Shown here piece after piece: positions 9,397-18,728 of a stretch of DNA of 64,000 nt. This stretch comes from Planctomycetota bacterium (GTDB lineage: Bacteria; Planctomycetota; Planctomycetia; Pirellulales; PNKZ01). A program made the position numbers and the translations under genes. The number at the start of each line of letters is the position of its first letter. Within the stretch, counting starts at the first letter, position 1. The stretch lies in the NCBI GenBank assembly GCA_018242585.1, contig JAFEBQ010000031.1:1044-65043 (forward strand). The letters are read 5' to 3'. The notes under the pieces are model-generated. The model did no database searches. It worked only from the letters and a program-made list of their open reading frames with translations, and was not told the DNA's origin.

Positions 9397-10479
9397 CTAA
9401 CCGTACACCGAGACGGGGGTGCGCACGGTCGTCGAGCGGATGCCGCGGGCGGCGTTCCGCAGGGCGTGACAGGCGTGGTTCAAGTCGTCGTCCGAAATGT
9501 CCAAGTGGGTCACGGCCCGCAGCGTGCGCGAGTTCTCGACCATGATGAACACGCCCGCCTCGCGCATGGCGGCGGCAAATTCCAGCGCGGTTCCCAGCTT
9601 GGGATTGATTTCGATGAACACGATGTTCGTCTCGACCGGCCCCCCGCGGAGCGACAGCCCCTCGGTCTGCTCGACCACGCCGGCCAGTTGCTTGGCCCGG
9701 TAATGATCTTCGGCCAATCGCTCGACGTGATGTTCCAGGGCGTACAGCGCCCCGGCCGCCAAGATGCCCGCCTGGCGCATCGCCCCGCCGAACAACTTGC
9801 GATGCCGCACCGCTCGGGCGATCAGGTCGTGCGGGCCGCAGATGGCCGAACCGACCGGCGCGCCGAGCCCCTTGCTAAAGCACACGCTCACGGTGTCGAA
9901 CGGCGCGGCCAATTGAGTGAGCGGCACGCCCGTGGCGACGTGCGCGTTGAACAATCGCGCTCCGTCCAGGTGGGTGGCCAACTTATGATCGTGAGCCCAG
10001 GCGCAAATCCGCTCGACCTCTTCGATCGGCTGCACGCGGCCGCCGCCGCGGTTGTGTGTGTTCTCGATGCAGATCAAGCGGGTGCGAACGTAGTGCTGAT
10101 TGTCGGGGCGGATCAGCGATTGCAGTTGTTCGAGCCGCATCACCCCGCACTCGCCGTCGATGGTTCGCGTGGCCACGCCCGACAACTGGGCCACGCCCCC
10201 TTGCTCGTGGTTGTAGATGTGACAGCCGCTATCGAGGATCACCTCGTCGCCGGGGTGGCAGTGCAGTCGCACGCCGATCTGGTTCGACATGGTTCCCGAC
10301 GGCACGTACAGCGCCGCCTCTTTCCCCAGCAGTTCGGCAATCCGTTGTTGCAGGCGAATGACCGTTGGGTCTTCCCCCCAGACATCGTCCCCCACCTCGG
10401 CGGCCGCCATCGCGGCGCGCATCCCTTGCGTCGGTCGGGTCGTGGTATCGCTCCGCAGATCGACGGGCAAGCGGACCAT
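9397..10479 (-). CDS. ltaE: Low-specificity L-threonine aldolase (PLP-dependent)
   Basis: DLRSDTTTRPTQGMRAAM, GDDVWGEDPTV, PSGTMSNQIG and a PLP-lysine region (CFSKGLGAPVGS) are present. I chose the ATG at 10477-10479. Confidence 0.8.
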   Translation of the reverse strand: MVRLPVDLRSDTTTRPTQGMRAAMAAAEVGDDVWGEDPTVIRLQQRIAELLGKEAALYVPSGTMSNQIGVRLHCHPGDEVILDSGCHIYNHEQGGVAQLSGVATRTIDGECGVMRLEQLQSLIRPDNQHYVRTRLICIENTHNRGGGRVQPIEEVERICAWAHDHKLATHLDGARLFNAHVATGVPLTQLAAPFDTVSVCFSKGLGAPVGSAICGPHDLIARAVRHRKLFGGAMRQAGILAAGALYALEHHVERLAEDHYRAKQLAGVVEQTEGLSLRGGPVETNIVFIEINPKLGTALEFAAAMREAGVFIMVENSRTLRAVTHLDISDDDLNHACHALRNAARGIRSTTVRTPVSVYG

Positions 10480-10713
10480 GTTCGTTGCCTGCGCTTTCTG
10501 AAGGATTCGAGGGGCAATGGGGCGGGACCGCACGTTCGAGCCGGCGCGACTCGGCGTACGACGTGTTGTCCCAGGTTTTTTCGCGGCCTGACATCGGTTC
10601 TAACCCAGCCGATTCCGGCGAACAAGAGCCCTAGCGAATTGGCCGATCGGTGGCGACAATAGAAGCTTTCGCACTTGTTAATCTTGGCGCCACCCGGCGG
10701 CGGAACACGCCCG

Positions 10714-12111
10714 ATGACAGCGACGCTCAACATCCAGACGATTGACGCCAACCACGACGACCTGCGCTCGGCCATTGGCGATTTACGCCGCCGCTTGAGC
10801 CCGCAAGGGAACATTGTCAGCCAGGCGGGCCGCCAGCGGACGATCGACGTCTTTGGCGCGCCGCTGACCCCGGTCGAGGTGGTCGAGCGGATCTGTCACG
10901 ACGTCCGTAACCGAGGTCTCGATGCGGTGCTCGACTACACGGCCAAGCTCGACGGCGCCAAGCTCACGCCCGAGACGCTGCGCGTGTCGGCCGACGAGCT
11001 GCAAGCCGCCTATCAGGCCGCGCCGCCGGGGCTGCTCGAAACCATCGCCAAGGTCGCCGACAACATCCGCACGTTCCAGCGGGCTATCCTGCACGGCGAT
11101 GTCCGCGTGCCGACGATCGAAGGAGGCTACCTGCGGCAGCGTTATTTGCCGCTGGACCGCGTGGGAGTTTGCGTCCCCGGCGGAGCGGCGGCGTACCCCT
11201 CGACCGCGCTGATGACCGTGGTGCCGGCGCAAGTGGCTGGCGTGCGCGAGATCGCCGTCGTCGCGCCGCCAACCAAGTTCGGTTCCTACAGCCCGGTGTT
11301 GTTGGCCACCTGTCACGCGCTGGGCGTGACCGAGGTGTATCGAATGGGTGGCGCGCAGGCGATTGCCGCGCTGGCTTACGGTGTGTCGGGCGTGCCGCAG
11401 GTCGACAAGATCGTCGGCCCCGGCAACCTGTTCGTGGCGCTGGCCAAGAAATGCGTCTATGGCGACGTCGACATCGACTCGATCGCCGGTCCCAGCGAAG
11501 TGGTCCTGGTGGCTGACAAGAGCACGCCACCCGCCTTCGCGGCCGCCGACCTGATTGCCCAGGCCGAGCACGCCCCCGGCGCGAGCATTTTGATCACCTG
11601 GGAGCCGGAGTTGATTCCGGCCATCCGCGCGGAGCTTGAACAGCAATTGGCCCAGCTTGAGCGCGGACAATTGGCGAGGCAGTCGCTCGAAGACTTCGGC
11701 GCGTTGATTCTGGTGCGTGACCAGGACCAGGCCACGGCGCTGGCCGACGAGATCGCGCCCGAGCATTTGCACCTGGCCGTGAACAACGCGGCCGAAATGC
11801 TCGAACAAATCCGCCACGCCGGCGCGGCTTTCATTGGACAATGGAGCCCGGTGTCGGTCGGCGACTATGCCGCGGGGCCGTCACATGTCTTGCCGACGGG
11901 TGGAACGGCGCGGTTTGCCAGCGGGCTGTGCGCCAATGACTTTCTCCGCCGCACCAGTGTGATTCACTACACGCCGGCCGATTTGATCTGTGCCGCGCCG
12001 CTGGTGCAAAAGCTGGCCGACCTGGAAGGGCTGACCGCGCACCGAGCCAGCGTGGACGTGCGCCTGGTGGCGGCCAAGGCGGCCAGGAATGGCAAGAAGC
12101 CGACTCAGTAG
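10714..12111 (+). CDS. hisD: Histidinol dehydrogenase
   Basis: YPSTALMTVVPAQVAGV, AIAALAYG, GPGNLFVALAKK, IAGPSEVVLVAD, AQAEH and APEHL are canonical HisD blocks. I chose the ATG at 10714. Confidence 0.9.
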   Translation: MTATLNIQTIDANHDDLRSAIGDLRRRLSPQGNIVSQAGRQRTIDVFGAPLTPVEVVERICHDVRNRGLDAVLDYTAKLDGAKLTPETLRVSADELQAAYQAAPPGLLETIAKVADNIRTFQRAILHGDVRVPTIEGGYLRQRYLPLDRVGVCVPGGAAAYPSTALMTVVPAQVAGVREIAVVAPPTKFGSYSPVLLATCHALGVTEVYRMGGAQAIAALAYGVSGVPQVDKIVGPGNLFVALAKKCVYGDVDIDSIAGPSEVVLVADKSTPPAFAAADLIAQAEHAPGASILITWEPELIPAIRAELEQQLAQLERGQLARQSLEDFGALILVRDQDQATALADEIAPEHLHLAVNNAAEMLEQIRHAGAAFIGQWSPVSVGDYAAGPSHVLPTGGTARFASGLCANDFLRRTSVIHYTPADLICAAPLVQKLADLEGLTAHRASVDVRLVAAKAARNGKKPTQ

Positions 12112-12380
12112 GATTGGCCACTGAGACTAGGATTGGCCACTGAGACACGGAGGAGCGGAGGAGTTAGGCCTGGGCTACAGAAAAGTGCCTGGGCTGGCGG
12201 AAAAGGACCACGCCGCGCACTCTAGATCGCTTCTCACCACGTTCTAGCGTCTGAGTGGCACGCCCGTCCTGCGGGCGTGGAGAAGCATGTACCGACCCTG
12301 ATATTTGGTTGGCGATTCTCCCCGCGCCCTGCGCTCCGCTTGGGACGCGCCACCCCTGCTAGAGCCTCTTGAGAGCTGCT

Positions 12381-14006
12381 CTAGCCAACGACGTCGTCCC
12401 ACGGCGCGCGCCAGTACGGCACTTGCGGGAAGAGGACCGTGGCCAGCTTGGCCGCCGTGCGGTTCGAGGCCTTGAGCGCCCCCGATTCCCGATCCGCGTC
12501 GATATCGACGTGTCCCAGCAGCAGCCGGGTCAACTCGTCGCGCGACAGCCGCAGATAGTTCCGCCCCAATTGCCCGCGGCCAAAGCGGACGCCGCGGCGG
12601 CTGACGGCCAGCTTCAGCCGTTCGCCGTCAACCAGCAGCCCCAGTTCCACGGCCCGCGAACCCGCCGCCTCGGCCGCGCGCCGTTGCAGCACCGGGGCCA
12701 GCCGGCGCAGCAAGCCGGGCAGGTCAAACACCTTCATCATGTACGACTCGCCCTGGTGCTGCTCGCCAAAGTTCGTCTCGCCGCCGGCGGCGCGGAACAA
12801 TTCGTGCAGCGAGTCATCGGCCGGCGAGTGCAACTGGACTGCGTAGTCGTCGCGCTCGATCGCCTCGGCACAAGCCCGGGCCAGCAACTGCTCGGCCACG
12901 CCGTGCCGCGCTTGTTCGAGCAGCGGTGACGTCGACGGCGCGCTCGGCGCGCCGACCAGCTCGATCACGCGATCTTCCTTCATCAGCATATAACCAACGA
13001 TCGGCAGCGTGGCCGCTTGCCAATCGAACTTGTCGGGCCCTTCGATGGCGACGAACAAGTGATCGACATTCTGCCGGCTGACCAGCCAACGCCAGGTGGC
13101 TTCCGTGCGCAACAGCGGCCCGGCGGCGCGCGAGATCCGCTCGCTGTACAACCGCATCAGCGCTGGCAGCTCGACTTGCCGCCAGGGACGAATGACCAGT
13201 TGATCGTCCGACGCGGCCAGGCCCCGCGCCGAAAGCTGCGCCAGCACCTCGCGCGGGTTGGCCCGGCTGTGACTGTGGCGGCCACAGACGGCCCAGCCTT
13301 CCGAAGCGAAGAACGCTGGGAAGCGCGTCCGGGTCAGGCCGATCACCGCGCCGTCGGCGGCCATCGCTCGCTCGGCACGTCGCACGAGCGCGCCAGCCAT
13401 TCCCAGATTGCGATACTCGGGCAGCGTGCCCAGGCAGGTCAGACCCGAGACCGGCAGATCGACCTGGTCGAAGCGCATCTCGCGCCGCACGGTTTGCACG
13501 TGGGCCAGCACTTGCGTGCCGCGGCGAACCAACCAGCGGTCGCAAGGTTCGTACAACGGGTCGTCAAGCGACGAAGCAAAGCCATCGCGCTGTGGCGAGG
13601 GGAACGCCGACTTGAAGAACTCGGCAATCGCCAGATGATCGGAAGCGGTGGCCGAAATCAGCCGCAGGCCTTCCCTCGCCTGCGCGTTGTCAGACGGCGA
13701 ATGCGCCTTGGCGCGGCGGCGCGAGCTGCGCCGTGGGCGGGTTGCTTCGCGCGCGGCCGGAGCGGGCGTCTCGACAACCGCGGGCTTGGTTTCGACGGCC
13801 GGCTGGTCCGCTGCTTCCGTCGCCGTGCGCGATTCCGTCGTGGCGCGCTTGGCCGTGGAACGCGCTTCCTTGGCCGGTTCGGCCGATTTGCCCAGTTCGG
13901 CCGATTTGCCTGACGCCAGCCGCTTCGCCTGCCCCGGCTTGCCCCGAGAGGCGGCGCTGCGTTTGACCGTTCGACGGACGCTGGCGGGCGAAATGGTCGT
14001 GCTCAT
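12381..14006 (-). CDS. GNAT-family N-acetyltransferase (Eis-like architecture) with a basic low-complexity N-terminal tail
   Basis: The GNAT core reads TLPEYRNLGMAGALVRRAERAMAADG and is followed by a long C-terminal extension. The N-terminal ~130 aa are K/A/E/T/P-rich and contain an in-frame 18-bp tandem duplication (13877-13910, GKSAEL/GKSAEP). I chose the ATG at 14004-14006. Confidence 0.6.
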   Translation of the reverse strand: MSTTISPASVRRTVKRSAASRGKPGQAKRLASGKSAELGKSAEPAKEARSTAKRATTESRTATEAADQPAVETKPAVVETPAPAAREATRPRRSSRRRAKAHSPSDNAQAREGLRLISATASDHLAIAEFFKSAFPSPQRDGFASSLDDPLYEPCDRWLVRRGTQVLAHVQTVRREMRFDQVDLPVSGLTCLGTLPEYRNLGMAGALVRRAERAMAADGAVIGLTRTRFPAFFASEGWAVCGRHSHSRANPREVLAQLSARGLAASDDQLVIRPWRQVELPALMRLYSERISRAAGPLLRTEATWRWLVSRQNVDHLFVAIEGPDKFDWQAATLPIVGYMLMKEDRVIELVGAPSAPSTSPLLEQARHGVAEQLLARACAEAIERDDYAVQLHSPADDSLHELFRAAGGETNFGEQHQGESYMMKVFDLPGLLRRLAPVLQRRAAEAAGSRAVELGLLVDGERLKLAVSRRGVRFGRGQLGRNYLRLSRDELTRLLLGHVDIDADRESGALKASNRTAAKLATVLFPQVPYWRAPWDDVVG

Positions 14007-14073: not shown

Positions 14074-14093
14074 TGAAAATCCAGCAAAAAGTT
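14074..14093. repeat. Left copy of the 20-bp direct repeat (candidate attL core)
   Basis: Exact 20/20 match to 16103-16122. It is AT-rich in a GC-rich context. Confidence 0.9.
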
Positions 14094-14139
14094 TGAAGGA
14101 TGGAAATTATCTGACGCTGCGTAACTGAGGAAAGCTGCG

Positions 14140-14739
14140 ATGGCCGGTCCCGTCCCGACATTTCTGCTGCCACAGTTGGAAGCGTGGATCGCGAGTCAGT
14201 GGCGGCACACCACGCAACGGACGCGACGGCGTGGCTTGTTCATCGGTCTGTGTTACCACGGGCTTCGTTCGGTCGAGGTCATCCGCATGAGGGCGGATCA
14301 GTTTTGCCCGCTGGGACCGAGCCTGTATTTCAAGAGTGCCAAGCGTGGGAGATACCGCACGGTGCAGTTGGAACCGGAGTTCGCTCGGGTGTTGCACGGA
14401 TTCCATACCCGCTATTGGCCGGATCACGTGCTGCTGTTCCCGAGTGAACGCGGCACGCCGATTGATCGCAAGCAGTATTTCTTGTACGGACTCGCGATGC
14501 GTCGTGTGATCGGCGGCAAGTTCTCACTTCACTCGTTGCGGCACAACTCGGCTCTGCGAGTCTGGTATGCGACGCGAGATTTGCTCGCGGTGCAGTCGCA
14601 CCTGGGGCACAAGTCGGTGGCGATGACCGCCAACTATTTGCATCGCATCATGCCGTTGCCGCCCGAGACGCTGCCCAGTTGGCCGAACGTCAGTCCCCGT
14701 TTCCATCCCCACCTTCAACTGAGAAAGTTTGCTCCATGA
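14140..14739 (+). CDS. Tyrosine recombinase / phage-integrase-family protein, catalytic domain only
   Basis: 199 aa. GLRSVEVIRMR (Arg I), HSLRHNSA (H-x-x-R), GHKSVAMTANYLH (His and the catalytic Tyr) are present. There is no room for an N-terminal core-binding/SAM-like domain. Confidence 0.8.
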   Translation: MAGPVPTFLLPQLEAWIASQWRHTTQRTRRRGLFIGLCYHGLRSVEVIRMRADQFCPLGPSLYFKSAKRGRYRTVQLEPEFARVLHGFHTRYWPDHVLLFPSERGTPIDRKQYFLYGLAMRRVIGGKFSLHSLRHNSALRVWYATRDLLAVQSHLGHKSVAMTANYLHRIMPLPPETLPSWPNVSPRFHPHLQLRKFAP

Positions 14740-14972
14740 GTGACGACAGTTTTGAGTCAAGACATTTTTCCAGGATGCAGGAACTGCAACGCCTGGTCGT
14801 TGAATCGCGACTGCTTCGCAGTCGCGGTCAGCACGTGCGTGCCAACGACACGCTTCGCTTGGCGTGCGACGTGCTGTTGGTGGATGAGTGCGACAGCCAC
14901 GGTCGCAACATCGAGTTCGATGAGTGTCCGTTATGTGCCGAACGTCTCAAGCCGTGGAGTTCCCGTCGATGA
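14736..14972 (+). CDS. Small hypothetical protein with a CxxH...CxxC zinc-ribbon-like motif
   Basis: 78 aa. Its ATG overlaps the recombinase stop (ATGA at 14736-14739). The motif is ECDSHGRNIEFDECPLC. Confidence 0.45.
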   Translation: MSDDSFESRHFSRMQELQRLVVESRLLRSRGQHVRANDTLRLACDVLLVDECDSHGRNIEFDECPLCAERLKPWSSRR

Positions 14973-15187
14973 GTCGCAAAAGTCTCAAAGGGCAACGAAA
15001 TATTTTCGACGACAGCACGCACGTTCCCGCGTCGCGGGAAGTGCGTGCCCGTGACCATCGTCTCGGCGAGCATGGCAAACGCTCGCACACGCGGAAGCGG
15101 AGTTTTGCTGCCCTCGTCAAGACGCTCGATGCCGATGATCGTCGGCGTCGTGCCGCACGCACTGAAACGGAGAATAACCGTGCCTGA
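14969..15187 (+). CDS. Small basic hypothetical protein (alternative frame, uncertain)
   Basis: 72 aa. Its ATG overlaps the preceding stop (ATGA at 14969-14972), and its stop at 15185-15187 overlaps a GTG at 15180 in the next frame. It competes with the 15045 ORF for the same DNA. Confidence 0.25.
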   Translation: MSRKSLKGQRNIFDDSTHVPASREVRARDHRLGEHGKRSHTRKRSFAALVKTLDADDRRRRAARTETENNRA

Positions 15188-15578
15188 ACCCGATTCCAAA
15201 CGGCCGCGGCCACGAGCGGATGGTGACACGTTCAAACGCACGGCTCGCGGTACGTTCGCCCCGGGCACCAGGCCCGGTCCTGGTCGCAAAGGTGGCGACA
15301 CCGCCGCCGAGCGTGCCATACGGAAGCAACACGAACACCTCTCGGAGCTCGCCACCGAGTTGGCCAACCGTGCCAGTCGCGGAAACGTCTACGACGCCGC
15401 GTTGCTGCTGCGGGTCGTGTCGATCGTGTTTCACACCCTCGGCAAAAACTCCTGCACGCGGGACAATTTCGAGGACGTCTTGCAACGCATCGTCGCCTCA
15501 CCGTTCGTGTACGAGCCTGATGACCCGCCAGAGAGGCAAGCCACCACCCCACGTTCCGCCGACGATCACACCGACTGA
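15045..15578 (+). CDS. Hypothetical protein with a GxFxPGxxPGPGRKGG motif (phage/plasmid DUF5681-like, tentative)
   Basis: ORF of up to 177 aa. The start is ambiguous: GTG 15045, ATG 15072 or GTG 15180. The motif RGTFAPGTRPGPGRKGG is followed by a helical region. A strong terminator follows the stop. Confidence 0.45.
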   Translation: MPVTIVSASMANARTRGSGVLLPSSRRSMPMIVGVVPHALKRRITVPEPDSKRPRPRADGDTFKRTARGTFAPGTRPGPGRKGGDTAAERAIRKQHEHLSELATELANRASRGNVYDAALLLRVVSIVFHTLGKNSCTRDNFEDVLQRIVASPFVYEPDDPPERQATTPRSADDHTD

Positions 15579-15598
15579 GGCTCGCCACCTTCAAAGGT

Positions 15599-15629
15599 CA
15601 CCACCCATCCTTGGGTGGTGCGGATTTTT
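15599..15629 (+). terminator. Rho-independent terminator
   Basis: The stem is CACCACCCA-TCCT-TGGGTGGTG (9 bp, perfect), followed by CGGATTTTT. It lies 21 nt after the stop at 15578. Confidence 0.6.
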
Positions 15630-16102
15630 GCGGGCCTCCCTGCCCGCGTTCGCCCCGCCCGGTGTGTCGCGTCACGTCACCCGCACTTCGTTGCTCTTGC
15701 CCGCGACGTGGTGCGGGACGCACCACCGGGCGGGTCTCACACGCCGCGTGGGCTCCATCCGGTCGCCACCGGCGGCGGTTCGGCGGACCATCCGTGGTCC
15801 GCCGTCACAACTCCTGCTGCCCACTCGCTCATTCCCGCACCGACCCCGCCGCGTCGGTTCGGCGTCGGCCGCGTGCGACGTGCGTGGCGTCGCACCCGCC
15901 GCCGCCGCCGCCGCTCATCGCTCGAAGTTCTGGTCGCATCCTGCTCTGCCAATTCCGTCGGCATCCTGCCGACGGTCGCACCGCGAATGTCTCGACACCT
16001 CGCCCGGGGCGACGGTCTCTCTCTCTCGTCGCGTGGTTCCAGGTCGCTCCCAAGTCGAAAGACGCGGAGTGCGGCGGGTGCGACAGTGAACGGTTGTACA
16101 GT

Positions 16103-16122
16103 TGAAAATCCAGCAAAAAGTT
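16103..16122. repeat. Right copy of the 20-bp direct repeat (candidate attR core)
   Basis: Exact 20/20 match to 14074-14093. Confidence 0.9.
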
Positions 16123-16279: not shown

Positions 16280-17926
16280 TCAAACTTGCCCCGCGCGCGG
16301 CATGCCCTCGACCAGAAAACCGCGCAGCGTCGGCTCGGGATACCACGCGAACGGATACTCGCGCCAGCTCAGCACTTGCCGCCGCGCCAATGCCGCGCGG
16401 AGCCGCGTTCGTTCGGCCAATAGCTCGCGTCGCCGCTCGGCCACGGCGGGTTGTAACTCGTCGTTAAGCTGGGAAATCTCGCGAGCGCGACGTTTGGCGT
16501 TCGACGGCTCGAACGGATCATCGATCCAGGCGCGCTTTCGTTCGATCAGCTCGCGAACCTGGCCATCGGCGCCGGCCAGAAACCGTTCAGGCTGAAATTC
16601 GAGCGAACGGAGCTGGTGTTCAAGCCGCCGCATCTGGTCGATTGCGACGTTCTCCTTCGCCACGGGCAGATGCAATGTGCCCGAGACGACCCCATCGGCC
16701 GGCAACGGCGCGGCGGCGAAGCGTGCGGCCAATAGCTGGGTAACTTCGTCATATTTGCCGCCGCCAATCCCGTGCAGAAACAGATCGCTGGCCACTAGGC
16801 GGCAAAACAGCGTCGTGGTCAGCGCTCGGCTACGCAGCCGGATGCCTTGGCTTTTGAGCGCCGTGATGGCCGCGACGGTGGCCGCCGCGCGACCCGTTCC
16901 AGGGGCCGGCAGCGCGACACGGATCGTTTGGCGGTCGGTCAGGATCAGTTCGCCAGCTTGCCGGGTGACGAAAGCCGCCCGGCGTCGCGGCGACGCGCCG
17001 GTCCACAGCCAGAAGGGGGCTTCGAGCGCCGGCCCGTCGGCGGCCAGTTTCGGCGCGGGATGGTTCGCGCTGCGCAAATGGTAGACCTGGCGATACTCGT
17101 CGATCGCGCCATTATAGATGTCACGAAACCGCGGCAGCCCGTCGAGCACCCAGGCCGCGAACCAGGCGAAGCTCTCGGTTTCGCACAACGCGCTTTGCGG
17201 CAGTTCGAGCGTCGCCAGCCCCCAGTCGGCTTCCAAGGCATGGCGCGCTTGCGCCATGGCCAGTCCGGCGCGGTCAGTGGCGCGAGCGCGCTCGACAACG
17301 CGCGGCCACAAGGTGCCAATCAACGGCTGCGCGAGCAAACCTTTGAGCAAGTCACTCGCCCGGCGATCGACACTGGTCCACAACGCCTCGTCCAGCACCG
17401 CACGTTCTTCCCACGGCAGCTCCGGGCCGTCGGCGTCGAGCGGCATGGCGCCGCGGTGCGGATGCTCAGGCGTGCCCGTGGCGATCGGCACGAGCGACGA
17501 TTTGATCGTGTCGCCGTCAACGACCAGGTTCAACGCGGCCGCGCCGGCGCGCCGCGCCAAAGCGTCGAGCGAGAAGTTCTTCAGCCAGACGCCGGGATGA
17601 AACAGTTGCGGCTGATGGCCGGCCGCGACGAGTGGCTGCTCGGGCGAAAATGCGGGCGCGGCGCGATACGCCGAGGTGTAGCGAGTGGCTGCCGTTAGCA
17701 ATTCACCGCGCGCCTGCGCGGCCAGCTCGACCAGCGGTCGATCCAGGATCAGCCGCGTGTCGATCCGACGAGCCGCGACATTTCGAGCCAGCAGCCCGGG
17801 CAGGGTTTCCCAGGCGGGTTCGACGAGCACGCTCCGGTCGGCCTGCGGCGCGCGGAGCTTGCGCTTCACGAGCGAATGCTGCGACGCGGCGGCGAGTGAG
17901 ATCGAATCGCTGGTCGCCGCTTGCAT
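16280..17926 (-). CDS. Conserved hypothetical protein (weak BshC-like / COG4365-like pattern)
   Basis: 548-aa ORF that reads like a real coding frame. AAGHQPQLFHPGVWLKNF and FLHGIGGGKYDEV loosely recall the GQQxGLFxGPLYxxxK and GGGGExxYW blocks of BshC-family ligases. This comes from memory only. It lies downstream of a GT2 gene on the same strand. Confidence 0.5.
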   Translation of the reverse strand: MQAATSDSISLAAASQHSLVKRKLRAPQADRSVLVEPAWETLPGLLARNVAARRIDTRLILDRPLVELAAQARGELLTAATRYTSAYRAAPAFSPEQPLVAAGHQPQLFHPGVWLKNFSLDALARRAGAAALNLVVDGDTIKSSLVPIATGTPEHPHRGAMPLDADGPELPWEERAVLDEALWTSVDRRASDLLKGLLAQPLIGTLWPRVVERARATDRAGLAMAQARHALEADWGLATLELPQSALCETESFAWFAAWVLDGLPRFRDIYNGAIDEYRQVYHLRSANHPAPKLAADGPALEAPFWLWTGASPRRRAAFVTRQAGELILTDRQTIRVALPAPGTGRAAATVAAITALKSQGIRLRSRALTTTLFCRLVASDLFLHGIGGGKYDEVTQLLAARFAAAPLPADGVVSGTLHLPVAKENVAIDQMRRLEHQLRSLEFQPERFLAGADGQVRELIERKRAWIDDPFEPSNAKRRAREISQLNDELQPAVAERRRELLAERTRLRAALARRQVLSWREYPFAWYPEPTLRGFLVEGMPRAGQV

Positions 17927-17966
17927 GGAAATACAATTCGCCGAGCGTCAGGAAGAACAGCCGTGC

Positions 17967-18728
17967 TCAAGAGCCGGCACACGGGCCGCACAACGTGCCC
18001 GACCAAAGCTGCGGTTCTTGCTCGACCCGCGCAACGGCATGATTGTCCATGCTCCGGTCCAGCACCAGATGGTAATACTGCAAACGCGTGTCGCCGTTGT
18101 CGAGCGCCCCGCCGAACGAACGCTTCTCGTCCAGGTAGATCAGCGGGACGGGCAGTTCGGTGATCCGCAAGCCGGCCTTGGCGGCGCGAACCCACAGTTC
18201 CAGCGGCATGGCGTAGCCCGCTTCGGTCACGTGCAGGTGCTTGAGCGACGCAACGCGATAGGCCTTGAAGCCGCAAAACGCGTCAGTGATGTTCAGGCAG
18301 AGCCGGCGGTTCAACTCGGCGGTCAGTTGTTCGTTGATCCGGCGGCGCTCGGCCGGCGGCTCGCTTTGGCCGTCGAACTTCTGCAAGTAGCGACTTCCCG
18401 AGACGATGTCACAATCGGCGGCCGCGGCCACGAACTTGGGAATCCGACAGGGCTGATGCTGGCCGTCACAGTCGATCGTGACGAGCACATCGTAGCCGTG
18501 CTGCTCGGCATAGCGAAACGCTGACTGCAGCGCGGCGCCGTAGCCTTGGTTCTTGGCATGGGTGACGACGTGCAGGCCGGGCTCTTGCTTCAGCAATTCC
18601 GCCGTCCCGTCGGTCGAGCCGTCATCGACGACGAGAATCTCGGGGCTGAAGCGCCGCACCTCGGCCAGCACTTTTTGAACGTGCTTGGCTTCGTTAAACA
18701 CGGGGAGCGCGGTCAAGTAACGCGTCAT
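17967..18728 (-). CDS. Family 2 glycosyltransferase (polyprenol-phosphate sugar transferase-like)
   Basis: LPVFNEAKHVQKVLAEV, ILVVDDGSTDGTAELL, NQGYGAAL and IDCDGQHQP are GT2/DPM1-like motifs. Confidence 0.85.
   Translation of the reverse strand: MTRYLTALPVFNEAKHVQKVLAEVRRFSPEILVVDDGSTDGTAELLKQEPGLHVVTHAKNQGYGAALQSAFRYAEQHGYDVLVTIDCDGQHQPCRIPKFVAAAADCDIVSGSRYLQKFDGQSEPPAERRRINEQLTAELNRRLCLNITDAFCGFKAYRVASLKHLHVTEAGYAMPLELWVRAAKAGLRITELPVPLIYLDEKRSFGGALDNGDTRLQYYHLVLDRSMDNHAVARVEQEPQLWSGTLCGPCAGS

Follow-up and report, generated by a model that had tools for sequence, protein, structure and literature searches.

A unit of 2029 bp, bounded by two direct copies of a 20-mer, lies between two minus-strand genes in the window (the whole 64-kb stretch of DNA that was analysed). 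Between the repeats are a four-gene overlapping operon, a terminator and 524 nt of non-coding DNA; the features are listed in Table 1. The operon starts with the gene for a 199-aa tyrosine recombinase, followed by ORFs of 78, 72 and 132 aa (orf2, orf3 and orf4), and successive genes overlap by ATGA, ATGA and GTGCCTGA. The recombinase ATG begins about 46–47 nt past the left repeat; an earlier note on this DNA (the original prediction) gave the distance as 47 bp, and the repeat ends 46 nt before the ATG.

Table 1. Features of the unit and its flanks (positions in the window).
Feature	Position	Strand	Remarks
Left flank: GNAT/Eis-like acetyltransferase, SCP2-like C-terminus	12381–14006	-	Frame open to GTG 14054; ribosome-binding site better at ATG 14006
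Left 20-bp direct repeat, proposed attL core	14074–14093		TGAAAATCCAGCAAAAAGTT; 67 nt upstream of the likely GNAT ATG (14006)
Tyrosine recombinase, 199 aa, catalytic domain only	14140–14739	+	Pfam PF00589
orf2, 78 aa	14736–14972	+	ATGA overlap with recombinase stop; four Cys/His as CxxH...CxxC; no family match
orf3, 72 aa	14969–15187	+	ATGA overlap; very basic, pI 11.6; no family match
orf4, 132 aa	15180–15578	+	Counted from GTG 15180, start uncertain; frame open from 15045; no family match
Non-coding region, 524 nt	15579–16102		GC 70–73%, packed with hairpins
Intrinsic-terminator-like hairpin	15599–15630	+	Hairpin 15599–15620 with a 9-bp stem, then CGGATTTTTG T run; closes the four-gene operon
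TTGTACAG, candidate recombinase-binding element	16094–16101	+	No other exact TTGTWCAG inside the unit; separated from the right repeat by a single base
Right 20-bp direct repeat, proposed attR core	16103–16122		TGAAAATCCAGCAAAAAGTT
Right flank: conserved 548-aa Pirellulales protein, no Pfam family	16280–17926	-	

The 20-mer was found exactly twice in the window, as the original prediction had stated, with both copies on the plus strand and a start-to-start distance of 2029 bp. No further copy was found in the 64 kb on either strand when up to three mismatches were allowed. The two copies match at 20 of 20 positions, and the identity ends exactly at 20 bp. A chance duplicate had been called very unlikely, and two controls bear this out: no copies of the 20-mer were obtained in 100 shuffles of the sequence, and an exact direct repeat of at least 20 nt with the same geometry was found at 1 of 2212 anchors in an empirical null, in which 300-nt segments of 1.3 Mb of real Pirellulales DNA were compared with the DNA 1–5 kb downstream. 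Both marks of an integrative element, direct repeats that bound the unit and an integrase gene near one end, are present. Typical core sites are flanked by inverted-repeat binding sites, whereas neither dyad symmetry, inverted-repeat binding sites nor a dif-like palindrome was found around the core in the reconstructed attP or attB. The 20-mer was also considered as a dispersed repeat and rejected as such: its 11 matches in metagenome contigs all lie in unrelated contexts (e.g., the coding sequence of an ABC-ATPase), and viral contigs (IMG/VR) gave 0.

The recombinase matches PF00589 with 54.6 bits (gathering threshold 27.1, E = 1.4e-14) over profile positions 19–168 of 172. The catalytic residues are all present (R43, K68, H131, R134, H157 and Y166), among them the R...HxxR...Y signature read earlier, and the C-terminal tail beyond them (P-x-W ... 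LRLF-P) is specific to the family. In 26 aligned family members R43, H131 and H157 are invariant, K68, R134 and Y166 are each conserved in at least 90%, and the N-termini coincide. The protein starts about 20 residues ahead of the catalytic domain; AGGAAAG is located 5 nt ahead of its ATG, and upstream extension of the ORF is blocked by an in-frame TAA (14122–14124). No Pfam match to the core-binding domains PF02899 or PF13495 was obtained for the protein. The AlphaFold model (pLDDT 92.1) had a confident Xer-like catalytic fold, and the top structural matches (Foldseek) were the catalytic domains of XerH and XerA (TM 0.71 over the query, 0.42 over the targets). Seventy structures in the PDB matched with E ≤ 0.001, the best 50 of the 70 being all tyrosine recombinases, and the PDB and NCBIfam alignments span catalytic domains only. 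The enzyme was therefore rightly described as core-domain-less, by sequence and by predicted fold. It is no truncated pseudogene: it belongs, intact, to a coherent family of ~200-aa enzymes.

Sixty-one representatives of the family scored E < 1e-10, most of the best-scoring being ~200–220 aa long. In the profile search thirteen members scored 186–230 bits, followed by a drop to 118 bits, the level of ordinary Xer-like proteins; by these scores the ~200-aa enzymes form a small and sharply separated family. A full-text literature search returned no description of the family or of such elements. The window's recombinase is recorded on a single contig, and an identity look-up returned no gene entry for this product.

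By sequence and by fold, the catalytic domain is closest to the Xer-type simple recombinases (XerA, XerC/D and XerH); XerA (5hxy) matched the family profile with E = 2.7e-28. Like the window's enzyme, Xer proteins have the full RKHRH+Y active site. Unlike it, they have an N-terminal core-binding domain, and the alignments begin at about residue 108–148 of Xer; they belong to the chromosomal dif/FtsK system, whereas the gene studied here is element-borne and its product has a C-terminal tail specific to its own family. The NCBIfam equivalog cut-offs were missed (XerC 44.1 vs 335, XerD 38.4 vs 330 and XerA 36.1 vs 220 bits). FimB/FimE-type invertases are of the same size (~200 aa), and residues 30–166 of the recombinase align to profile positions 33–176 of 200 in PRK09870, with a nearly equal N-terminal offset and a score (22.9 bits) below the cut-off of 221. 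FimB/FimE-type enzymes are the classic example of tyrosine recombinases that lack a separate core-binding domain; they rely on host bending proteins. The Fim enzymes act on short inverted repeats and flip a promoter, whereas here the repeats are direct and the 64 kb hold no inverted copy; the predicted outcome is therefore excision or integration. The integron integrase profile TIGR02249 gave 22.4 bits (cut-off 265), and a search for a cassette array or repeated attC-like sites found none. The family placement, which the original prediction had left to such searches, is that of an Xer-like catalytic domain which misses the Xer, Fim and IntI profile cut-offs alike. Elements with SSV-type integrases, once integrated, have the recombinase gene at their extreme end, as does the unit here. 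A split integrase of this type was considered and rejected, since the in-frame TAA lies between the core and the ATG and the opposite side is non-coding; given that TAA and the lack of a coding signal in the non-coding region, the recombinase gene is not completed by circularisation.

Related loci were found in several settings. The original prediction had pointed to metagenomic plasmid or virus contigs as a place to look for similar units. Family members do occur on apparently circular contigs: overlapping contig ends in loci L100 and L102 define units of 2643 and 2632 bp, and in L100 an ORF continues over the contig-end junction. The L124 member is carried by a 694-kb contig, in a 3.08-kb chromosomal unit bounded by a candidate direct repeat (15/25 nt) that is weaker than the window's pair and has its copies 3083 bp apart; 119 nt separate the left copy from the recombinase gene downstream of it, and the GC content shifts at each end. 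This pair was noticed post hoc, and has p ~0.012 in the Pirellulales empirical null. A giant palindrome suggested in L124 by the MFE fold was rejected; a gapless repeat search gave short arms and one 32-nt inverted repeat only. Family members adjoin unrelated genes (ROK; L27/Obg), and those of L098 and L099 are embedded in more extended arrays of small, phage-like genes on one strand (CsrA, D12 methyltransferase, ASCH and DUF6166). Most loci of the family have an ORF of 76–105 aa after the recombinase gene, and no cargo ORFs are common to the window's element and the other loci. The L100–L102 sub-lineage encodes a conserved 230-aa protein with no match in Pfam, PHROGs, the PDB, phage records or IMG/VR. 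The motif TTGTWCAG (background frequency 0.0245 per kb) recurs upstream of the recombinase gene in L100–L102; TTGTACAG would be upstream of the window's recombinase gene only after circularisation. The TTGTWCAG match was spotted after the fact.

Known plasmids and phages gave no match to the element DNA. The recombinase protein had generic catalytic-domain matches only (~30%) in plasmid and phage records, and generic matches only in IMG/VR; matches of the element type were absent from the phage, plasmid, IMG/VR, PHROG and PADLOC resources. The original prediction counted three or four short overlapping genes, and three follow the recombinase gene. No matches to orf2–4 were obtained in Pfam, PHROGs, NCBIfam, PADLOC or PDB sequences, and no similarity to the small ORFs of the related recombinase loci was detected. 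The coding signal of orf3 is the weakest among the four genes (GC3 0.58). The orf4 product is basic and rich in Gly and Pro at its N-terminus and helical at its C-terminus; its single-sequence structure model (pLDDT 57) was too poor for a structure search. No replication, transfer or packaging function was detected in the element (Pfam, PHROGs, NCBIfam and PADLOC), nor a relaxase or Mob family match (Pfam, PHROGs and NCBIfam).

Downstream of the operon, the strong terminator and the roughly 500 bp of hairpin-dense non-coding DNA described previously were recovered as the terminator-like hairpin with its T run and the 524-nt region, which folds more strongly than its shuffles (z = -6.4 on the plus strand and -5.6 on the minus strand) and is free of codon periodicity. 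The structured region could serve as an oriT; it carries no identifying feature of one. No Rfam family reached the gathering score, and the sole match with E ≤ 1 in the region was a 15-bit chance match.

The GC content is 56–60% in the recombinase part against 66–70% in the flanks, and GC3 is 0.73 inside the unit against ~0.82 in the flanks; the composition of the unit is foreign relative to its surroundings. Both flanking genes are on the minus strand and no tRNA or tmRNA was found in the 64-kb window by ARAGORN, so the location first reported, a gap between two minus-strand genes and not next to a tRNA, holds. A tRNA or ncRNA as the insertion target was rejected on this result and on the Rfam search. 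The 548-aa gene has its own terminator-like hairpin (16254–16239, minus strand), outside the element.

Orthologues of the flanking genes are adjacent in 29 of 80 related Pirellulales genomes, with the gene order GT2, 548-aa gene, GNAT retained at these loci. The spacer measures 8–289 bp in 28 of the 29 (the ORF calls overlap in L095), and subtraction of 2029 bp leaves about 196–244 bp in the window. No homologue of the recombinase or of orf2–4 was found between the flanking genes in the 29 syntenic loci. The nearest relatives of the 548-aa protein are 47–48% identical, and no strain-level relative of the host was found, in the GTDB genomes or a 5.8-billion-protein collection. As the flanking proteins are only ~48% identical, the 'empty site' of the relatives is a conserved gene adjacency and not a sequence-level attB; absence of the unit from the orthologous site is gene-order evidence from distant relatives (at most 48% identity). 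Of the empty sites proposed originally, the adjacency of the flanking genes was found, and the single copy of the 20-mer was not: the spacers of the relatives hold no sequence like it. Neither the attP junction nor an empty attB of the element was found in metagenome or viral collections, a search of little power because the source sample is apparently absent from them.

We estimate a probability of about 0.72 that the unit is an integrated, att-flanked 2029-bp mini mobile element between two conserved Pirellulales genes. A minimal integrative element was also the original reading, and it is backed by the repeats, the GC shift, the short spacers of the relatives, the intact recombinase family and the family members on small, apparently circular contigs. 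Counting against it are the undetected attP and attB junctions, the lack of inverted-repeat sites around the core, the absence of a detected replication, transfer or packaging function, and cargo ORFs that other family loci do not share. The element is probably among the smallest self-integrating mobile elements seen. The two 20-bp repeats would be the attL and attR cores, a sequence common to the element's attP and the chromosomal attB, and the 199-aa catalytic-domain-only enzyme would exchange strands inside the 20-bp identity. Excision would yield a circle of 2029 bp and leave the flanking genes with one 20-mer between them again, and integration would be the reverse reaction; the apparent circularity of related elements lends excision indirect support. 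The predicted attP junction is ...GGTTGTACAGT-20mer-TGAAGGATGG... (with other flank lengths, ...GAACGGTTGTACAGT|TGAAAATCCAGCAAAAAGTT|TGAAGGATGGAAATT...), and the predicted attB junction is ...TTTGAGTAAA-20mer-CACAAGAAGTG... (likewise, ...GGGTTTGAGTAAA|TGAAAATCCAGCAAAAAGTT|CACAAGAAGTGCAAGG...). Circularisation would bring the 524-nt hairpin-rich region and TTGTACAG immediately ahead of the core and the recombinase gene; both probably hold binding sites for the recombinase or accessory proteins, and possibly an origin. Since the enzyme has no core-binding domain, site recognition would need help, which might be provided by the translationally coupled orf2–4 proteins or by host DNA-bending proteins. 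Present-day excision and integration and the position of strand exchange are inferred, as are the transfer route and the roles of orf2–4 and of the non-coding region.

The unit could instead be the decaying relic of a larger prophage or integrative element that was deleted internally and kept its att ends and integrase module, as might be suggested by the longer phage-like arrays around the L098 and L099 family members and by the recombinase being the only mobility function detected in the element. We consider this rather unlikely: the operon of four genes is tightly packed and translationally coupled, ends in a terminator and shows no pseudogene scars, the repeats are still 20/20 identical, and independent relatives measure 2.6–3.1 kb (apparently circular 2.63–2.64 kb in L100 and L102, and 3.08 kb in L124), so that the small size looks native to the group.

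A domesticated cassette, whose excision and reinsertion the host would use to switch the downstream GNAT gene, would resemble the recombinase-bearing elements excised from cyanobacterial genes and phage regulatory switches. The left core precedes the GNAT start codon by just 67 nt, the insertion lies between GNAT and the upstream 548-aa gene (8–289 bp apart in 28 relatives), and no transfer functions are detectable in the element. Its absence from all 29 syntenic relatives, however, gives no sign of long-term vertical retention, its composition is foreign, and its intergenic position interrupts no reading frame; as family members also adjoin unrelated genes (ROK; L27/Obg) or reside on 2.6-kb contigs that appear circular, such a recombinase-controlled cassette is decidedly improbable.

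There is a slim chance that the recombinase-like protein acts mainly as an atypical relaxase of the SGI1 MpsA or pCW3 TcpM type, with a small partner that would supply DNA binding and the non-coding region as oriT; the unit would then be a mobilisation module, which is compatible with the integrative reading. In SGI1, MpsA adopts the fold of a tyrosine recombinase, and MpsB, a small protein co-transcribed with it, is similar to a core-binding domain; the GC-rich oriT with inverted repeats adjoins mpsA-mpsB (PMC6414798). The layout here is similar, likened by description only, to mpsA-mpsB-oriT and TcpM (recombinase-fold protein, small partner, GC-rich inverted-repeat DNA); the non-coding region is strongly structured, and most family loci have the 76–105-aa ORF downstream of the recombinase gene. 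These small downstream ORFs, however, have no detectable similarity across sub-lineages, and no conjugation genes were noticed among the larger ORFs of the window. MpsA nicks oriT instead of recombining repeats, and with its catalytic Tyr at residue 319 is more than 100 residues longer than the 199-aa recombinase (PMC6414798). A relaxase would also fail to account for the direct repeats of 20 bp, whose presence demands a recombination event.

That the repeats are a chance duplicate or an assembly artefact, such as a small plasmid joined to the chromosome at a common 20-mer, is hardly credible: although a de Bruijn assembly with k=21 has a k-1 overlap of exactly 20 bp, so that the integrated state rests on the assembly, and although the recombinase is on one contig only with no recorded gene for its product, chance is excluded by the shuffles and the empirical null, and a plasmid would match exactly that spacer's 20-mer only if the 20-mer were the plasmid's att site, and therefore by the same biology.

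The integrated mini-element is best compared with small integrative mobilizable elements (Tn5520 and the NBU type), which are likewise bounded by att sites or ends and carry one tyrosine recombinase gene and few others. Tn5520 has a size of ~4.7 kb; at 2.03 kb the window's element is less than half as large, and differs in having no relaxase/Mob gene and a recombinase without N-terminal domains. The IMEX elements (CTX-phi and others, which use the host XerCD) are small integrating circles, like the window's element, and the att site of CTX-phi is formed by a folded DNA region. IMEX have no recombinase of their own and integrate at dif, whereas the window's element encodes its enzyme itself and targets an intergenic site other than dif. 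Tn5520 has been cited as the 'smallest bacterial mobilizable transposon' (PMC5704250), and in a 2026 survey IMEs with fewer than five genes accounted for only 0.5%.

Tentatively, and with the odds somewhat against it, the element might be a member of an undescribed group of 2–3-kb self-integrating circular episomes of Planctomycetota, with a catalytic-domain-only recombinase that recognises a TTGTWCAG-type site and, in L100–L102, a 230-aa protein that could be capsid-like. If that protein is capsid-like, these would be the smallest among bacterial replicons that integrate and resemble viruses or satellites. The findings hint at a pool of tiny circular Planctomycetota elements overlooked by current mobile-element and virus finders. 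If active, the unit would be a ~2-kb self-integrating element, less than half of Tn5520, and a bare catalytic domain of ~200 aa would be able to act as an integrase; how such an enzyme recognises its site, by a partner protein in trans, host factors or folded DNA, is the question it raises. It would also provide a compact, defined recombinase/att pair (199 aa and a 20-bp core) in a phylum with few genetic tools.

The 64-kb window has two copies of the 20-mer TGAAAATCCAGCAAAAAGTT and no more, at 14074-14093 and 16103-16122, as the original prediction had stated; they lie on the plus strand, 2029 bp apart from start to start. A third copy was absent from either strand of the window with up to 3 mismatches allowed, and the sequences flanking the two copies showed no similarity past the 20 bp. 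An empirical null was drawn from 2212 anchors in 1.3 Mb of Pirellulales DNA, at each of which a 300-nt segment was compared with the sequence 1-5 kb downstream of it and the longest exact direct repeat scored. The repeat pair is real and chance is ruled out, the 20-mer being found in none of 100 dinucleotide shuffles and a repeat of at least 20 nt at 1 of the 2212 anchors; misassembly is very unlikely as well, and 20 bp is k-1 at k=21.

Features of the repeat-bounded unit, its chromosomal flanks and the TTGTWCAG motif (window coordinates unless a locus is named)
Feature	Position	Strand	Remarks
GNAT/Eis-like acetyltransferase gene, left flank	12381-14006	-	
Left 20-bp direct repeat (proposed attL core)	14074-14093	+	exact match to TGAAAATCCAGCAAAAAGTT
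Recombinase gene, 199 aa	14140-14739		starts 46 nt past left repeat; AGGAAAG ahead
orf2, 78 aa	14736-14972		ATGA overlap with preceding stop
orf3, 72 aa, pI 11.6	14969-15187		ATGA overlap with preceding stop
orf4, 132 aa if GTG is the start	15180-15578		overlaps preceding stop
Non-coding region, 524 nt	15579-16102		GC 70-73%
Terminator-like hairpin and T run	15599-15620		closes four-gene operon
TTGTWCAG motif site, window	16094-16101		
Right 20-bp direct repeat (proposed attR core)	16103-16122	+	exact match to TGAAAATCCAGCAAAAAGTT
Gene for 548-aa protein without Pfam family, right flank	16280-17926	-	own terminator 16254-16239
TTGTWCAG motif sites, L100	748-773		
TTGTWCAG motif sites, L101	726-772		
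TTGTWCAG motif sites, L102	760-806		

The integrase-family gene predicted 47 bp from the left copy, the short overlapping genes behind it, the strong terminator (as a terminator-like hairpin) and the approximately 500 bp of hairpin-dense non-coding DNA were all recovered between the repeats (see table). Upstream extension of the recombinase ORF is blocked by an in-frame TAA (14122-14124). A split integrase gene of the SSV type was ruled out, because a stop precedes the ATG and the DNA beyond the junction is non-coding. The 524-nt region has no codon periodicity and no RNA-family match; both of its strands fold far better than shuffles (z of -6.4 and -5.6), which makes the hairpins a feature at the DNA level. 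The GC content was 56-60% in the recombinase part against 66-70% in the flanks, and GC3 was 0.73 against ~0.82 in the window's remaining genes. No tRNA or tmRNA gene was found by ARAGORN in the whole window, in line with the predicted lack of an adjacent tRNA, and no Rfam family reached its gathering score across positions 1-64000.

The unit lies in the gap between two minus-strand chromosomal genes, as anticipated. The gene for the 548-aa protein comes after a GT2 glycosyltransferase gene. Relatives of the protein were found in Pirellulales and Thermoguttaceae MAGs only, at no more than 48% identity, a distribution that gives the placement of the host and means that its lineage is otherwise unsampled. 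Of the best 80 loci, 29 have GT2, the 548-aa gene and GNAT in this same order, and homologues of the recombinase or of orf2-orf4 were present in none of the 80. The spacer between the 548-aa gene and the GNAT gene measured 8-289 bp in 28 of the 29 syntenic loci (in the other, L095, the automatic ORF calls overlap); subtraction of 2029 bp from the window leaves ~196-244 bp, inside this range. Judged by gene order, the unit is an insertion, the evidence being adjacency in distant relatives and not a sequence-level empty site, since the 20-mer is not recognisable in their spacers. Of the empty sites envisaged in the original prediction, adjacent flanking genes without a recombinase were found, but not the single 20-mer copy.

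The 548-aa protein belongs to no Pfam or NCBIfam family, yet 874 proteins at E<=1e-50 were found across Pirellulales and Thermoguttaceae, and in 77/80 loci the same GT2 glycosyltransferase gene stands immediately upstream of its gene (window 16280-18728; L016-L095 in the relatives); together they make up a conserved pair of genes that is uncharacterised. The GNAT protein has an N-terminal extension of ~130 aa that is of low complexity and rich in Lys, Ala and Glu, and two 18-bp units in tandem, TTGGCCGGTTCGGCCGAT and TTGCCCAGTTCGGCCGAT, were observed within its coding sequence at 13869-13905. Matches from the relatives begin only at about residue 110-127 of the GNAT protein.

The 199-aa protein scored above the Pfam threshold for PF00589. 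Its NCBIfam and PDB sequence alignments (XerC, XerD, XerA and XerH) span the C-terminal catalytic domains only, with scores far under the family cut-offs for every such match. HMMER, run in full against 1.84 billion representatives, returned 61 proteins at E<1e-10, the best-scoring of which are mostly ~200-220 aa long and aligned from their first residues. In an alignment of 26 family members R43, H131 and H157 are invariant, K68, R134 and Y166 are nearly invariant, and a C-terminal tail (P-x-W ... LRLF-P) is common to them. A profile search scored 13 members at 186-230 bits and ordinary Xer-like proteins at no more than 118 bits. The AlphaFold model was confident (pLDDT 92), and its top structural matches were XerH and XerA; the TM-scores (0.71 over the query, 0.42 over the targets) show that the protein is the catalytic domain and nothing else. 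On the strength of these relatives, conserved residues, profile gap and fold, the recombinase is intact and belongs to a separate family of short proteins; it is not a truncated gene. The prediction of an R...HxxR...Y signature (R43, H131, R134, Y166) without an N-terminal core-binding domain was likewise borne out.

Lineage B of the family is represented by P0015, a second chromosomal recombinase, in the 694-kb contig L124. Its gene has L27/Obg genes on one side and genes typical of planctomycetes on the other; ORFs of 82, 69 and 60 aa come after it, and then ~1.3 kb in which no coding signal is present. A candidate direct repeat was observed at 9858-12965 of this contig (AGTTAGCCAGCGCCACGGGGGTCAA and AGTTTGCGGACGCCACGGGGGTCAA, 3083 bp apart; 15 nt exact, 21/25 overall), with one copy preceding the recombinase gene by 119 nt. 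It brackets this gene, the three small ORFs and the ~1.3 kb of GC-rich non-coding DNA, which carries a 32-nt inverted repeat, and the GC content changes at both ends (65-74% inside, 57-62% outside). The 15-nt repeat has p ~0.012 under the same Pirellulales anchor null and is moderate, post hoc evidence. The same integrated form was seen in L125, from a second sample, and L096 has two small ORFs in common with L124.

Lineage C (L100, L101 and L102, from two samples) shows 70-74% identity over two genes and one architecture (L100 1-2669, L102 1-2820, L101 1-2530), with a recombinase of 204-218 aa and an ORF of 76-86 aa. The opposite strand encodes a conserved 230-aa protein (63-66% identity), for which no match was found in Pfam, PHROG, PDB, phage records or IMG/VR. 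L100 has a terminal overlap of 26 nt (24 identical), which makes the unit 2643 bp long, with an ORF across the junction; in L102 the terminal overlap is 188 nt (179 identical) and the unit 2632 bp. From these imperfect terminal overlaps both look like circles or tandem copies, and the lineage C contigs may represent circular replicons of very small size.

Lineage D comprises two more distant loci, L098 and L099, in which small genes form phage-like arrays that include CsrA and a D12 methyltransferase. The CsrA-like gene precedes the recombinase gene by at most ~850 nt (L098 422-2081, L099 807-1765), and the small same-strand genes encode DUF6166, an ASCH-like protein and the D12 DNA methyltransferase; the arrays look phage- or plasmid-like. 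One further family member adjoins a ROK gene. No cargo gene was common to the lineages compared, and an ORF of 76-105 aa right behind the recombinase gene recurs in most family loci.

The stretch 40-66 nt ahead of the recombinase gene is otherwise divergent among L100-L102 but retains two copies of TTGTTCAG, in direct order and 18 nt apart. An exact inverted TTGTWCAG is present in L101 and L102, the corresponding L100 copy being degenerate. The window's element has one exact TTGTWCAG only, with a single base between it and the right repeat; the background frequency, both strands counted, is 0.0245 per kb. Only circularisation of the element would place this copy ahead of the recombinase gene, a position that fits an integrated unit formed by the opening of a circle at its 20-bp core. 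The motif is a candidate recombinase-binding site; it was noticed after the fact and is so a lead, not proof (moderate post hoc evidence).

The element appears to work like a site-specific integrative element. The recombinase resembles Xer recombinases in its catalytic domain and Fim-type invertases (~200 aa) in architecture, and scored below the NCBIfam membership cut-offs of both. Fim-type invertases have inverted repeats, whereas the predicted substrates here are direct repeats. Tn5520, cited as the 'smallest bacterial mobilizable transposon' in a review of IMEs (PMC5704250), is far larger than the 2.03-kb element, and IMEs with <5 genes made up only 0.5% in a 2026 survey. No trace of the element or of the recombinase family was found in phage, plasmid, IMG/VR, PHROG and PADLOC resources, and no description in the literature searched.

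It is possible that the element is the deleted remnant of a larger one; however, the operon is intact, the repeats are perfect and independent relatives are of similar size. By analogy with MpsA/MpsB/oriT of SGI1 (PMC6414798), the recombinase could be a relaxase with an oriT; this may hold alongside the integrative reading, but it leaves the 20-bp repeats unexplained. A domesticated excision switch for GNAT is less likely, as the element is missing from relatives and of foreign composition, and the recombinase family occurs in varied contexts.

For an integrative element, strand exchange by the recombinase would take place inside the 20-bp identity common to attL and attR. Excision would release the element as a circle of 2029 bp, in which attP is made up of the structured region, then TTGTACAG, the core and the recombinase gene, and the two host genes would be left with a single 20-mer between them; integration would reverse these steps. 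As it has no core-binding domain, the recombinase probably needs help in recognising and bending its site, which the co-translated small proteins or host factors may supply. The C-terminal segments of Cre and Xer dock onto the neighbouring subunit, and the C-terminal tail modelled here (pLDDT 60-70) may dock onto an adjacent subunit. The hairpin-rich region may carry accessory sites or an origin. The GNAT start codon is 67 nt downstream of the insertion, and expression of this gene may be affected.
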